Below, one piece after another: positions 24,382 through 36,235 of a DNA stretch of 64,000 nucleotides; position 1 is the stretch's first letter; the number at the start of each line of letters is the position of its first letter. Source of the stretch: a virus. The notes under the pieces were generated by a model. That model searched no databases. It was not told the DNA's origin and saw only the letters and a program-made list of their open reading frames with translations. Where the stretch lies: UHGV virus genome UHGV-0326994; one strand, given 5' to 3'. A program made the position numbers and the translations under genes.

Positions 24382-24639
24382 TTTTAGATTCTCCAGTTTA
24401 GGAAGTGGGCTTGATTGCCCGTCTGATGCAAATATTAGATAACCATACTCAAAGAGTCAATAGGAATTTTAAAAATATTTTTGGCAAAAATGTAATGAAA
24501 CGGGTGCGCGCGAATACCACAAAACAGAACACAAATCAAGAATTATTTTCCAATCCGCTACAAATTTTTCTGTTGACTTTTCTTTTCGGATGTGGTAGCC
24601 TTGTGAGAAATGGCGACATTCCCACCTGCACCCACCTAC

Positions 24640-24815
24640 CTGCACAATTCTAAAATGATTTTTCTTGCCCGACCTGAGCGGGGTCTGCACGTTTTGAAAA
24701 TAAAAAAGCTCTTTGGAGATTATCTGCACAGTTTGAAAATGAATTTTCTCTTTGGAGTTCAAAATTTTCTCTACAGATTTCTCTAGAGAAATACACCTGC
24801 ACAATCCTGAAATAA
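24640..24815. repeat. four direct repeats of a 19-bp motif CTGCAC[AG]NT[TC][CT]TGAAAAT
   Basis: Copies near 24641, 24688, 24725, 24797 within the 500-bp intergenic region. Confidence 0.5.
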
Positions 24816-24888
24816 AAAAGCCCTCCTTACCTGAAAAATTTACCAGATAAGAAAGGCTTAGTCTATTGTGAATATCCTACAGAGTTTC

Positions 24889-25674
24889 TTAGTTCTTTGC
24901 GTCTAAGAAGGTAACTTCCGGTGAAGAGAAAATTTCCTCAACATCCTCATCAGTTCTTGCATAGATATATGTATCTGCATCACTGCCAAATGTTACTGCA
25001 ATCCTGTGATTGTTCTTTGACAGGTGGGTAACTAGAGCGTTACTTAGAGACATCTTTTCAACCGGAGGGTTACTTTGATGTATCTTGCCTTTTCTTCGTC
25101 TGAAGAGGGTAACTGCATCATTAGTGAACACTACTACACCTGCAAAGTATTCTGGTTCACAGTAGTTCTTCCAACCTGAGCGTAACTTGTGGTACATCTC
25201 TCCTTCGTAGACATACAGATACACATCTACACTCTTCATCACCTGATTGATAATAACTGTGACAGCTTGAGGGTCAAGTCCACCGATTCCTGCGCCAATC
25301 ATAGGTAAACCAACTTTCTTTAACTGGTTCACTTCACAGTATCTGTTGAGCTGGTTCAAAGATGACTCTAAAGCACTGTATCGGGCATCTTTACCAGTCT
25401 TAAGCTGAGTGTAAAGGTTAGCTATACGACCTTGTTTTAAACGTGCTACAGAGAAATTACCTAGCAAATTTTCACAGGGTTTGTGGCCTATACCACCTGC
25501 ATACAGATAAACTTCTGTATCAGTCTCATATGCTTTTGGGTAAAGTTTAGAAATCTTGTCAGCGATACCTGCACCCATTAAGTTCATACAGTTGCAACCG
25601 TGACCGATGACGTCAAACTTACCTTTATCAAATGCTGCAAAGATATCACCATTGATGATTTTTACAATACCCAT
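24889..25674 (-). CDS. macro domain (ADP-ribose binding/hydrolase-like) protein with C-terminal extension
   Basis: N-terminal motifs IINGDIF, VIGHGCNCMNLMGAGIA and LPMIGAGIGGLD match macro-domain signature blocks. Confidence 0.65.
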   Translation of the reverse strand: MGIVKIINGDIFAAFDKGKFDVIGHGCNCMNLMGAGIADKISKLYPKAYETDTEVYLYAGGIGHKPCENLLGNFSVARLKQGRIANLYTQLKTGKDARYSALESSLNQLNRYCEVNQLKKVGLPMIGAGIGGLDPQAVTVIINQVMKSVDVYLYVYEGEMYHKLRSGWKNYCEPEYFAGVVVFTNDAVTLFRRRKGKIHQSNPPVEKMSLSNALVTHLSKNNHRIAVTFGSDADTYIYARTDEDVEEIFSSPEVTFLDAKN

Positions 25675-25875
25675 TTAACATCTCTCCCAAGATTCTTTAT
25701 CTTCTGAAGGTTTTACACGTTGTCCTTCGTGGTCTACCCAGATACACCCGCAGCCTTCACAGATTACTGGCATTGCATAACCAGCTTTAAAGTCATCTTC
25801 AGTGATAAGACCTTTTAAGTCTCCTGTATCACGTCCGAACATTTCGATAGAACAGTCTTTGCAGAAGTCAGCCAC
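25675..25875 (-). CDS. hypothetical Cys-rich small protein (66 aa)
   Basis: CKDC...CEGCGC pattern suggests zinc binding. Confidence 0.45.
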   Translation of the reverse strand: MADFCKDCSIEMFGRDTGDLKGLITEDDFKAGYAMPVICEGCGCIWVDHEGQRVKPSEDKESWERC

Positions 25876-26101
25876 GAATAATTACCTCTTGAGTGATAAT
25901 ACCTTTACCACAACGACTTTTAAAATCTTCTAATGGTTCAGAGAAGAAGTCACGGAAATGGTTACTATACTCACGTTTCAGCACCTTCTTGTAAGTTAAC
26001 ACATCTTTTTCTGCAAACGGGATGACTTCATTTCTCCCTATGAATACTGCTGAACTTACAATCTTACGAGTCTTTTTATTTCTGGCTAGTATTACTTTCA
26101 T
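25868..26101 (-). CDS. hypothetical protein (77 aa)
   Basis: ORF track. Confidence 0.4.
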   Translation of the reverse strand: MKVILARNKKTRKIVSSAVFIGRNEVIPFAEKDVLTYKKVLKREYSNHFRDFFSEPLEDFKSRCGKGIITQEVIIRG

Positions 26102-27708: not shown

Positions 27709-28404
27709 TCAATGTTTAACTAACATGGTTTTAATGTGTGGAAGGATTCTGTTTACCTTCTGAACATTCTTCTCTGTATCTTCTATAAAACATACTATAT
27801 CAAAGTAAGGCAGAATGCAAGACTGAATCATCCGTACTTTTAAACTTTCTGCACTTATAGAGTTAGTTCCAAAACCACGCATAAAAAGCATGTAGTCATG
27901 CTCTGTGTTATGCCTTAAAAACATCTCAGTAGGTATTCTCTGAGATTCACCCCTTGCTGTCAAGAGTCCAATGGCAGCATGATTAGCAATTGCATCAATA
28001 ATATTGAAAACATACGTTGGTTTTGCTCTTACAGAGTCAAGAAGGTTAGTATACTGTGAAAATGACCCATCAGTCAATTCCGTTGAGCAATCTTCGTGAT
28101 TAAAATTTGTAAGAACACCATCAATATCTGCCAAGATAAGGTTGCCTTTCTCCACAAGGTCTTTATTGACTATGACTAAACTATCACGCCTTACACCTAT
28201 AGTTTGTCCAGTCTCTTTGTCCATAACGTTCACAATTGGTTCTGATGTGTGGAACTCTTCAAGTGAACATACAACCTCTCTTGCAGTGTCTTCAAAGTCT
28301 CTACACTGCTCTGTAGTCCATATGCCAGAATCAATACCTAATTCATGAGGATGCAAGTCATAAGCATGGCACAGTACTTCATCAGACTTTCTTAATTTTT
28401 TCAT
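27709..28404 (-). CDS. HAD-superfamily hydrolase, possible 5'(3')-deoxyribonucleotidase
   Basis: DxDGV motif (ILADIDGVLTNF) typical of HAD phosphatases; N-terminal 60 aa may be an extension or mis-start. Confidence 0.45.
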   Translation of the reverse strand: MKKLRKSDEVLCHAYDLHPHELGIDSGIWTTEQCRDFEDTAREVVCSLEEFHTSEPIVNVMDKETGQTIGVRRDSLVIVNKDLVEKGNLILADIDGVLTNFNHEDCSTELTDGSFSQYTNLLDSVRAKPTYVFNIIDAIANHAAIGLLTARGESQRIPTEMFLRHNTEHDYMLFMRGFGTNSISAESLKVRMIQSCILPYFDIVCFIEDTEKNVQKVNRILPHIKTMLVKH

Positions 28405-28930: not shown

Positions 28931-29030
28931 TGGTTCTCCTGTTTAGTTTATCGTGACAACAATTATACAGTACTCTGCACAAAATACAAATAAAAAAGGC
29001 CGCCGAAGCAGCCTTTTAAGAAATTACTTA

Positions 29031-33511: not shown

Positions 33512-35293
33512 TTAAAGCTGCTTGTCAATATTATTTCGAATATCACCAAGAGATGTGTAGCCATACTGCTCAGAATCACTAAAGACTAAGCGTAGAGCAC
33601 AAGCTGGATGTTCAAGTGCATCTGCAAAGCTCTGGAATCCATAACCATCTACAGCTTTCAGTTTATCACCATCCCACATAGGTGCTACACCACCAAAAGC
33701 AGACTTCTTAACACCGCTATCTGTTTTAGGGTCTTTTGCAAGCATAATCTCTTTACCACCAATGCTTGCAAGAGTCGCTTTAACAGCAAATGCAAAGGTG
33801 TCACGAGTCATGTACTGGTAAGTGTAAGAGCCTACGCCAAACACTACGTTAGAGCTTGCAAAACCCATTTCATACAGACGCTTCAGGATTTCGTTTGCAC
33901 GTTCCAGTGTGATAGAGTCACCATAGATAAGGCCAATGTGTTCATCCAGTACCTTAAAACCTTTGGAGTTGATAGTCCCTCCGAAGATGTTATACAGGGT
34001 CTTAATAGCCCCATCAATCTCTGCTACAGGGCGTGTTACAACGTTTGCAGAACCAACCATATAAGCGTTCTTCAACAGCACTGTATCAGCAACTTCAAAG
34101 TCTTCTCTGTCAACAACCATTTCGTAGCCTTCTGACAGTAGCCATCCAGCAATACCATAGCTGATGTTTTCAAGCTTCATATTCAGAACAGCATTCAACA
34201 TTGTGTCGCTGGCTTCCAACTTACTAAGGTGCTCATAATAAGCCTTTTTAGCGCACTCTAAGTGGATTGCTTTATAACCTGTGACAATATGTACAGGGTC
34301 TCCAGAGTCAGGACGAATTACCAGTTTACCGTCACGTTCCATAATCTCTTTGCGAAGTGCTGGTAAGATTTCTGACACAGTTCTCCAGAAGTTATAAGTA
34401 TCTGAAACAACACTTGCAATACCAGTCGGGTAAGTCTTTGTTAAGAAACGACGGAAGGTCTGCAACTCACCTTTAAAGCGTCTTTCCTCTTCAATCAATT
34501 CATTACCACCTTCCCAAGCAATGTTTGCACACATTACAGAGTGTTCAGTGGCTGGTACAGAACCACCAATATCAGAGACTGGGTAAGACTGTCCGTAGAT
34601 GCGTTTAGCTGTATATACAGCAGGGAAGCTATCAGTCCCTTTAAAGCTGGTCAAGTGACCTACAGCATTAAATGCGTCATCAGTAAAGCCGGACATACCA
34701 CGCATAGCAAAGTCATGGCACTGATAAGGTAAATGTAAGTCATTGTCACAAGTAAGGTCAGCCCACTTCTTACAGATGCGTTTGTAGTGCAATGCAATAG
34801 TTGCAATGGTACAAGCCTTCCAAATCTCAGCAGAGAAAGCATCTTCCAGATAACCTGCTACCCAATGAAAACCTGAAACAGTGTTCTGGAAGACAATCAT
34901 TGGTACACGCATCGGAACAACTGTACCTTCTTCTACAGCGTATACCTCAACTGGCAGATAGCCTAAGTCGTGAAGTGCTTCCCAATGTTCTCGACCAATA
35001 GCATCTTTACCAAGAACACCGTTCATGACTTCTAAGATTTCGTCAATTGCTTCTTTTTTATCACGTTCAAAGAAAGTGGCGTTCCAATGGTCTATCAAGT
35101 AATCTTTAACAAAACGTTGAATACCAAAAGCTACTACACCGTCAATTGCTAAGGGGCTGTTAAACCATTTGTCGCTACGTGGTGTCAGGTTGAACATCAA
35201 GTACTCTGTTGCGCTAGGATACTGGTAAACATGACCAGATTTGTAAGCATCTGCATTTAAACCTGCTGGTACTGCGTAAAGTGATTTAGTCAT
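33512..35293 (-). CDS. nicotinamide phosphoribosyltransferase family protein (NadV/Nampt-like; candidate Namat of a NAD+ reconstitution pathway)
   Basis: 593-aa ORF, Nampt-like by eye; immediately downstream of a PRPP-synthetase-family gene. Confidence 0.7.
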   Translation of the reverse strand: MTKSLYAVPAGLNADAYKSGHVYQYPSATEYLMFNLTPRSDKWFNSPLAIDGVVAFGIQRFVKDYLIDHWNATFFERDKKEAIDEILEVMNGVLGKDAIGREHWEALHDLGYLPVEVYAVEEGTVVPMRVPMIVFQNTVSGFHWVAGYLEDAFSAEIWKACTIATIALHYKRICKKWADLTCDNDLHLPYQCHDFAMRGMSGFTDDAFNAVGHLTSFKGTDSFPAVYTAKRIYGQSYPVSDIGGSVPATEHSVMCANIAWEGGNELIEEERRFKGELQTFRRFLTKTYPTGIASVVSDTYNFWRTVSEILPALRKEIMERDGKLVIRPDSGDPVHIVTGYKAIHLECAKKAYYEHLSKLEASDTMLNAVLNMKLENISYGIAGWLLSEGYEMVVDREDFEVADTVLLKNAYMVGSANVVTRPVAEIDGAIKTLYNIFGGTINSKGFKVLDEHIGLIYGDSITLERANEILKRLYEMGFASSNVVFGVGSYTYQYMTRDTFAFAVKATLASIGGKEIMLAKDPKTDSGVKKSAFGGVAPMWDGDKLKAVDGYGFQSFADALEHPACALRLVFSDSEQYGYTSLGDIRNNIDKQL

Positions 35294-35338: not shown

Positions 35339-36235
35339 TTAATCAAGGTTTGCTACAGTAACTTGACCATAATGTGTTAACCCACGGTCTTTAGCTTCCC
35401 CTAAAGAGTTTGTAGTGTAGATATGGTCAATACCATTGTCAAGTAAGTTTTCAACACCTTTAGAGAAGATACCATGTGTTACATAGAGTTCCACACGTTT
35501 TGCACCTGCTTCACGTAGGTGTTTCGCTGCCTCTATGAAGGTTCGTCCTCCATCACAAATATCATCCAGAATCATGACTGTTTTATCTGTCAAATCAACA
35601 TCATCAAGGATTCGCATACCAGTGATTTCACCAGTCTTGAGGTTACGTACTTTAGACATTGTGATGTATGGCTTATCCACTTCTTTAGCAGTCTCTGCAA
35701 TCTTCTTAGCAGCACCTGCATCTGGGGCTACTAAGTAATCAACCAGTGGGTCATTTGCATAGTGGACTGCAATTTCCTTTTGAGGAATACTCTGGAAGCA
35801 GTTAAACAGGTTATCTGGTACATAGCTGTGAGGGTCAACTGCACAGACTGCATCAAAACCCATTGCATTAACCTGTTGTGCAAACACTTTCAAAGCTGCT
35901 GCATCGCCTTTAAACATGTGACGGTCATAACGTGCATTTGGCAAATAGTAAAAGATAATGGTCTTCATAGCAAACTTATGGGGTACTAAATCATCAATTG
36001 CTTCTTTAGCAAGTGCCACAGCAAACAATGTGTCTTTATCATAACCTTTTACAATCATAATCACATTGTTGATGGATGATGCTGCATAAGCAGTGAAATC
36101 AACAAACTCTGGTGAAAAGTGTCCACCAATCTCACCAGAAGGGAATTGGATGATGTTAAACTCTTCTTCGTGAGTCCCTTTAGTGGGTGAATGGACTGTA
36201 ACACGGATAGATGTTTTCATAGTTTTCTCTCTCAA
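35339..36235 (-). CDS. ribose-phosphate pyrophosphokinase family protein (Prs-like; candidate Adps)
   Basis: Prs blocks FPSGEIGG, YLPNARYDR, VDPHS, VAPDAGAAKK, VMILDDICDGGRT, GAKRVELYVTHGIFS align with E. coli Prs motifs. Confidence 0.75.
   Translation of the reverse strand: MREKTMKTSIRVTVHSPTKGTHEEEFNIIQFPSGEIGGHFSPEFVDFTAYAASSINNVIMIVKGYDKDTLFAVALAKEAIDDLVPHKFAMKTIIFYYLPNARYDRHMFKGDAAALKVFAQQVNAMGFDAVCAVDPHSYVPDNLFNCFQSIPQKEIAVHYANDPLVDYLVAPDAGAAKKIAETAKEVDKPYITMSKVRNLKTGEITGMRILDDVDLTDKTVMILDDICDGGRTFIEAAKHLREAGAKRVELYVTHGIFSKGVENLLDNGIDHIYTTNSLGEAKDRGLTHYGQVTVANLD

Follow-up and report, generated by a model that had tools for sequence, protein, structure and literature searches.

The 64,000-nucleotide stretch analysed here, taken from the Felixounavirus genome UHGV-0326994 and called the window below, carries a complete coding sequence for a two-domain macro protein at 24889..25674 on the minus strand (261 aa plus stop). 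The protein is the orthologue of bas63_0095 of phage JohannRWettstein (Bas63), to which it is 96.2% identical, and consists of an N-terminal macrodomain (residues 1-156; 25207..25674, minus strand) and a C-terminal domain of 105 aa (residues 157-261; 24892..25206, minus strand). Judged by its sequence, the macrodomain belongs to a phage counter-defence family that is known and was characterised recently, the Tk.4/Adpp family of the ALC1-like (TARG1/DarG/SCO6735/Poa1p-like) class. The fused C-terminal domain and a possible link in trans to NARP1, an NAD+ module encoded in the same genome, are the new part. We favour, at slightly less than an even chance, the reading that the protein serves in counter-defence as a hydrolase that attacks ADP-ribose (ADPR) at C1'', with DarT2-type thymidine-ADP-ribose on phage DNA as its main substrate.

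The macro fold of the N-terminal part was found by several approaches. Pfam PF01661 matched residues 25-141 with 30.9 bits (gathering cut-off 22; E=2.8e-7), and the usable structure model, obtained from an alignment-based AlphaFold run, displays the three-layer alpha/beta/alpha arrangement. Comparison of the family profile with PDB sequences returned TARG1 (4e-11), Mycobacterium tuberculosis DarG (Mtb DarG, 3.6e-9), Taq DarG (1.7e-7) and Poa1p (6.5e-5), and the best solved relatives are Bt_1257, DarG and TARG1, all of the ALC1-like class. Coronavirus Mac1 was matched (E about 1e-3) only when the single sequence was searched and disappeared with the family profile. This match bears on a reading of the protein as a MacroD/YmdB-type or viral Mac1-type enzyme, a general de-MARylase or O-acetyl-ADP-ribose deacetylase, which would strip the ADP-ribose that other host transferases have put on protein or RNA, or dispose of sirtuin products. 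Protein ADP-ribose linked to Glu/Asp is also a substrate of SCO6735 and TARG1, and some GenBank orthologue records are named O-acetyl-ADP-ribose deacetylase; we regard this reading as improbable. Other orthologues are called 'macro domain-containing protein' or 'putative phosphatase', and since such names are already in use, the macrodomain itself is not new. The 'phosphatase' label was also considered as a sign of clearance of RNA-repair by-products, which was rejected, as the label is a legacy of the A1pp motif name.

Alignment with the family and with solved relatives located the ligand-binding and catalytic motifs. Phosphate-binding loop 1 (M33-G-A-G-I-A38; 25561..25578, minus strand) occupies invariant columns and is preceded by H25-G-C-N28-C, which corresponds to the H23 motif of Poa1p; its Asn is equivalent to N23 of PhiKZ AdfM, for which an effect of the N23A exchange was reported (PMC13309987). 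The second Gly-rich ADP-ribose loop, loop 2, is P124-M-I-G-A-G-I-G-G-L-D134 (25273..25305, minus strand). MGAGIA (33-38), IGAGIGGLD (126-134), H25 and N28 are invariant among 19-30 family members, and both loops align with those of DarG, TARG1 and Poa1p. Between the loops lies N86-L-Y-T-Q90 (25405..25419, minus strand), likewise invariant in the family and aligned with DarG, TARG1 and Bt_1257. Q90 aligns with DarG K80, TARG1 K84 and SCO6735 Q85, and ANLYTQ of the macro protein aligns with ANMIGQ of Bt_1257, which places a Gln at the catalytic position within N-x-x-x-Q; the Q85A variant of SCO6735 is inactive (PMC9411070). The ratio of non-synonymous to synonymous substitution rates (dN/dS) of the macro part, calculated against pEP20 and Bas63, is 0.03-0.04.

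These features bear on a reading in which the macrodomain would only bind ADP-ribose ligands or signals, with the C-terminal domain transmitting or sequestering as part of a sponge or sensor. We consider it very improbable: N28, Q90 and the loop residues are invariant and matter for catalysis in PhiKZ AdfM and SCO6735, close family members are enzymes, and the dN/dS of the macro part is compatible with an enzyme. An earlier note on this DNA, made from the letters alone, had described macro-domain signature blocks in the N-terminal part followed by extra sequence without assignment, and had named the absence of a macro fold or of the Gly-rich loops as grounds for doubt. The Pfam match, the motif alignments and the fold searches bear out the first part, the fold and both loops are present, and the extra sequence has become a modelled domain.

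By pairwise score, the closest characterised phage relative is T4 Tk.4 (35% identity over residues 3-157, 82 bits, E=4e-24), ahead of a Pakpunavirus macro protein (76 bits) and Cilsick gp173 (56 bits). A transposon screen of T4 (HIDEN-SEQ) identified tk.4 as the sole T4 gene required on a DarTG2 host; a clean knockout confirmed the sensitivity to DarTG2, and the gene was renamed adfM, for anti-DarT factor Macrodomain, in 2025 (bioRxiv 10.1101/2025.11.20.689424). The macro protein and T4 Tk.4 have in common the HGCNC, NLYTQ and IGAGIG motifs, and the loop that follows the Gln is short in both. The macro part is matched by DarG models (PADLOC 3.8e-13, positions 14-146/329; NCBIfam 2.6e-12), the macro fold and ligand loops are intact, and the gene stands in a separate terminator-bounded block away from NARP1. 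In addition, the ALC1-like class has been described as united by one activity, the reversal of thymidine-ADP-ribose, and the Gln variant has been proven to perform it (PMC9411070).

From homology and context we infer the following course of events. The gene would act early, and the macrodomain would clamp ADP-ribose between its two Gly-rich loops and hydrolyse whatever group sits at C1'' of the distal ribose, with the invariant Q90 at the position of the catalytic Lys of DarG/TARG1, as in the Lys-less SCO6735. Host DarT2-type toxins would mark single-stranded DNA (ssDNA) of the phage with thymidine-linked ADP-ribose, and the macro protein would erase this mark so that replication could proceed, as for T4 Tk.4/AdfM. 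The C-terminal domain, packed on the macrodomain, would most likely bind a variable partner, be it the toxin, DNA or another phage protein.

Several observations weigh against DNA-linked ADP-ribose as the main substrate. The T4 evidence is genetic only. The catalytic Lys of DarG/TARG1 is absent, and the H-x-C-N-C motif is common to Poa1p, a phosphatase. Net charge and isoelectric point of the macrodomain and C-terminal domain show no consistent basic or acidic character and thus give no hint of DNA binding. The phage also carries NARP1 without an Adpp in the operon, and the macro protein and the NARP1 enzyme Adps co-occur in the Ounavirinae: the C-terminal domain was found in 258 phage records and Adps (at least 60% identity) in 253, across Felixouna-, Moogle- and Suspvirus-like phages. 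Finally, a neighbour-joining tree with bootstrap did not split AdfM-type from Adpp-type proteins, with T4-type and NARP1-linked sequences interleaved and deep nodes at 1-28%; within it, Tk.4 of Acinetobacter phage 133 clusters with a NARP1-adjacent macro protein of an Acinetobacter phage (87%). Because of this interleaving and the unresolved deep nodes, T4 AdfM and Adpp form one sequence family as far as can be resolved, and this family may be bifunctional. The same tree joined the Ounavirinae two-domain proteins in a single clade (99% bootstrap) and set the Tk.4/Adpp group apart, with 100% bootstrap, from DarG and PhiKZ gp104; the latter also bears the name AdfM but is a true DarG-like 'FPTK' enzyme. 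T4 AdfM and the NARP1-associated Adpp proteins, which come from the work of different groups, are mutually 31-41% identical.

NARP1, which consists of Adps and Namat, was discovered in Bas63, a phage nearly identical to that of the window, and shown to overcome SIR2-HerA. In the window, Adps, a Prs-like ADPR pyrophosphokinase, is encoded at 35339..36235 (minus strand; Pfam Pribosyltran and Pribosyl_synth) and Namat, a Nampt-like nicotinamide ADPR-transferase, at 33512..35293 (minus strand; Pfam NAPRTase and NAMPT_N). Adps is 80.5% identical to Bas63 gp79 and the adjacent Namat 98% identical to Bas63 gp80, a mosaicism within the operon. Adps is listed with a TTG start that is probably wrong; counted from an ATG five codons further in, it has 293 aa, the length in Bas63. 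Osterman et al. found a Poa1p-like macro protein, Adpp, in 15% of NARP1 operons. The RES-domain defence aRES yields ADPR-1''-phosphate (ADPR-1''P), which Adpp of Vibrio phage Gary (KNV71_gp137) turns into ADPR for the rebuilding of NAD+ by NARP1; this Adpp is required to overcome aRES, as shown in 2026 (bioRxiv 10.64898/2026.01.28.702374). We recovered two such NARP1-linked macro sequences, both listed in Table S1 of that study: Cilsick gp173, encoded between Adps and Namat, and the macro protein of Pakpunavirus PaZq-1, two genes after Namat. Both are 29-31% identical to the macro protein of the window, and gp173 is 35% identical to T4 Tk.4.

It is possible, although in our estimate distinctly less probable than the DarT2-directed reading, that the protein is an Adpp working in trans. 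It would dephosphorylate the ADPR-1''P made by RES-type NAD+ phosphorylases, and NARP1, 7.8 kb upstream, would rebuild NAD+, so that Felixounaviruses would be natural 'NARP1-AP' phages. Same-family macro proteins inside or beside NARP1 operons, the conserved Poa1p-type H-x-C-N-C motif and the co-occurrence with Adps throughout the Ounavirinae speak for this. Among phage members of the family, biochemical data exist only for the phosphatase activity of the Gary protein, and Bas63, the source of NARP1, has a nearly identical Namat. On the other hand, the macro gene lies outside the NARP1 operon, at a distance of 15 genes and with terminators in between, where it closes a terminator-bounded block of its own, and most carriers of the family lack NARP1. 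The loop after the Gln is longer and aromatic-rich in in-operon Adpp proteins (QYNYG or QYHW), which the macro protein and T4 Tk.4 lack, and the pairwise scores to NARP1-linked proteins (56-76 bits) are below that to T4 Tk.4.

Adps and Namat are present in the same genome, and the macro gene is not within two genes of either, the distance that defines Adpp and NARP1-AP. The published survey covered +/-2 genes around NARP1 (bioRxiv 10.64898/2026.01.28.702374), and a gene 15 genes away would thus escape it; its four supplementary tables, Table S1 included, contain no Escherichia or Salmonella phage names. The possible in-trans link of the macro gene to NARP1 was not described in the literature we searched, nor did that literature pair Bas63 with DarTG. 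We rank DarT2-type thymidine-ADP-ribose first and ADPR-1''P second as substrates, and the two are not mutually exclusive, as one enzyme could process both. Adps is a possible downstream user of the ADPR that the macro protein would release. The suggestions of the earlier note, that the protein may counter ADP-ribosylating host toxins or connect to the NAD+ module, are supported by homology and context. T4 Tk.4 is the anti-DarTG2 factor AdfM, the module is NARP1, a pathway established by experiment that consumes ADPR, and same-family macro proteins in NARP1 operons have been reported to feed it, so that both suggestions have published precedents in homologues.

The distribution of the family was observed in phage, bacterial and metagenomic collections. 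Macro proteins of the Tk.4/Adpp family are present in more than 2,000 phage records (2,790 with a match), whereas an Adps homologue occurs in only 1,005. As most carriers do not have Adps and T4 does not have NARP1, the main role of the family is independent of NARP1, which favours the DarT2-directed reading. A scan of GTDB found seven macro-only bacterial relatives among 185,579 species genomes, and their neighbours were uninformative, so they provide no guilt-by-association with a toxin. Two-domain relatives down to 33% overall identity were found in metagenomic contigs with the same synteny, namely rIIA, rIIB, an SLT-like gene, a HAD-PNKP-like gene, a small open reading frame (ORF) and the macro gene. 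The 3-kb neighbourhood shares 93-95% nucleotide identity with about 200 phages of E. coli, Salmonella and Shigella. We compared alleles between the window (24701-26095) and a Felixounavirus-like contig, L003 (Logan SRR18206799; 6567-7936). The contig is 94.4% identical to the window over a 6.6-kb flank and its protein upstream of the macro gene, of 66 aa, is 100% identical, but its two-domain macro protein is only 41% identical, with no nucleotide similarity from inside the macro gene to beyond the terminator. Such allele replacement is expected of genes engaged in an arms race, as counter-defence genes are.

Next to the macrodomain, the C-terminal domain stands out by its rapid divergence. 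The model comprises a linker helix (158-167), six beta-strands and a C-terminal helix with predicted local confidence (pLDDT) of 81-92, and from the predicted template-modelling score (pTM), 0.88, the domain seems to be held in a fixed orientation to the macrodomain. With a dN/dS of 0.18-0.26 against pEP20 and Bas63, it is a real domain under purifying selection. Its identity drops faster than that of the macrodomain in ever more distant relatives (55 vs 81%, 20 vs 53% and 14-20 vs 40-47%). Only P174, G179 and, nearly so, Y236 are conserved, which argues against a second active site, and the net charge varies from -5 to +4 across members, so that the domain does not clearly resemble either a protein that binds nucleic acid or one that mimics DNA.

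The domain is restricted to Ounavirinae-like phages. Exhaustive searching of 1.84 billion representatives with phmmer returned only two matches, both Ounavirinae-type, and the 258 records found by tblastn in the phage collection are all Ounavirinae. The Felix-type C-terminal domain and that of the shorter, 252-aa type are homologous (hhalign 96.8%, E=2e-10). A word-indexed protein search with the single sequence or the profile, comparison of the profile with PDB sequences and scans of viral contigs with the domain alignment or P0013 detected nothing significant. When all 15 C-domain sequences were scanned with Pfam, the matches were scattered and all had E>0.02; one of them, to PH (0.057, in a single member), is not taken as evidence. 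By hhalign, there was no significant relation to the C-terminal extensions of Acinetobacter phage 133 Tk.4 and Erwinia phage Tian, nor to small ORFs beside Adpp genes and in the window, and tblastn found no paralogue of the domain within the window. Weak tblastn matches (E 0.2-0.3, 26% over 84 aa) in Salmonella phage BPS17L1 (5674-5931) and Escherichia phage finno (25400-25657) fall in a different small ORF of some Felixounaviruses, of which the window yielded no counterpart, and are probably due to chance. Foldseek in BFVD produced full-length alignments, with large root-mean-square deviation (rmsd), to other long Tk.4-like proteins, all of 244-260 aa, from Erwinia phage MM7 (gp101), Acinetobacter phage 133 (Tk.4) and the Vibrio phages YC and VP-1. 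Extensions at the C-terminus may thus be a recurrent feature of the Tk.4 family, with uncertain structural equivalence given the large rmsd and no detected sequence relation.

The C-terminal domain is probably a non-catalytic adaptor. In DarG, a macro domain is joined to a C-terminal domain that blocks DarT through ssDNA mimicry, a precedent that makes partner binding by the Ounavirinae domain an attractive idea; since the DarG models match the macro part only, such a role stays an analogy. The fused domain was not described in the literature searched. In a bolder variant, which we deem rather unlikely, the protein would be a two-domain 'complete antitoxin': the macrodomain would erase both the DarT2 mark on DNA and the ADPR-1''P made by aRES, and the C-terminal domain would directly bind and block DarT2 or a RES NADase, or dock onto NARP1. 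If so, the layout would be convergent with the macro-plus-toxin-binding architecture of DarG, and T4 AdfM and Gary Adpp would be one bifunctional family.

The macro gene appears to end its own transcription unit. It starts with ATG, 7 nt downstream of a GGGAGAG ribosome-binding site, and an intrinsic-terminator-like hairpin of 17 pairs plus T-run (24818..24859, minus strand) begins 30 nt past its stop codon. From its sequence this hairpin, also present in pEP20 and Bas63, closes the unit. Directly upstream, a 66-aa zinc-ribbon-like CxxC...CxxC ORF (25675..25875, minus strand) ends with a TAA that abuts the macro ATG (TAAATG), and because stop and start adjoin, the two genes are probably translationally coupled. 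The small protein, which has no Pfam match, may be a coupled partner of the macro protein. A different CxxC...CxxC ORF, of 63 aa, occupies this position in the distant contig L004, and none was found there in L005 or Erwinia phage Tian. Further upstream, a 231-aa ORF (27709-28404, minus strand) is called 'polynucleotide kinase' in relatives. A Pfam scan of it at E<=0.01 was empty, its counterparts in L004 and L005 have weak or faint HAD_PNKP matches only, and it looks phosphatase-only because of a DxDG HAD-type motif (DIDGVLT).

Downstream of the macro gene, the intergenic region contains four copies of ATTT-N7-GTGCAG (24640..24813, minus strand), located between the macro terminator and the next sigma70-like promoter (TTGACT-17-TAATAT, 24460-24432); these are the regulatory repeat region of the earlier note. 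The window has five copies in total against 0.30 expected, and the fifth (28975-28991, minus strand) lies just past the rIIB terminator, heading the gene block that ends in the macro gene. Both pEP20 and Bas63 keep the copies, and the divergent contig L003 has retained three of the four. An Rfam scan of the repeat region matched no family. The Bas63 annotation places two small plus-strand coding sequences here, bas63_0096 and bas63_0097 (window 24405-24786); as they overlap the repeats and the terminator, they are probably not genes.

NARP1 came to light in Felixounaviruses of the Bas63 type, and phages of this type are common in the therapy and typing of E. coli and Salmonella. Their conserved macro gene escaped notice owing to its distance of 15 genes from NARP1, and it could confer natural resistance to aRES, DarTG2 or both. 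With T4 AdfM and NARP1-linked Adpp in one sequence family, one enzyme type may serve two counter-defence roles. The Ounavirinae version has gained a well-folded and rapidly evolving C-terminal domain, whose partner, if found, could uncover a novel means by which a host effector is targeted or neutralised.

Compared with known systems, the macro protein is most like T4 Tk.4, with which it shares the macro family, its motifs, the short loop and the state of an early phage gene with no adjacent toxin; no DarT toxin gene was found among its neighbours. It differs in that the T4 protein has a single domain of 155 aa, while here 105 aa are added and the phage has NARP1. With Adpp it shares the Gln at the catalytic position, the Poa1p-like H-x-(C/A)-N-C motif and a phage that encodes Adps and Namat, but Adpp proteins are single-domain, about 150-168 aa long and encoded at most two genes from NARP1. 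From DarG and PhiKZ gp104 the protein is set apart by the invariant Q90 in place of the 'FPTK' catalytic Lys (DarG K80). Membership in the DarG equivalog (NCBIfam NF048014) was rejected, with 46.7 bits against a cut-off of 250, a match to positions 12-153/338 only and the Lys absent, and neither the NCBIfam nor the PADLOC model matched beyond the macro part, into the DarG C-terminal domain. The bacterial Lys-less thymidine-ADP-ribose DNA hydrolases SCO6735 and Bt_1257 (PMC9411070) also have the Gln at the catalytic position; they lack a C-terminal domain, are about 23% identical to the macro protein, and carry a mobile loop five residues longer than in DarG/TARG1, whereas that of the macro protein and T4 Tk.4 is short. 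Human TARG1/OARD1, the best PDB match of the profile, has a K84/D125 dyad where the macro protein has Q90 and G131, and yeast Poa1p shares its H-S-C-N-C motif with the macro protein. Both are eukaryotic, single-domain housekeeping proteins, in contrast to the two-domain phage protein described here.
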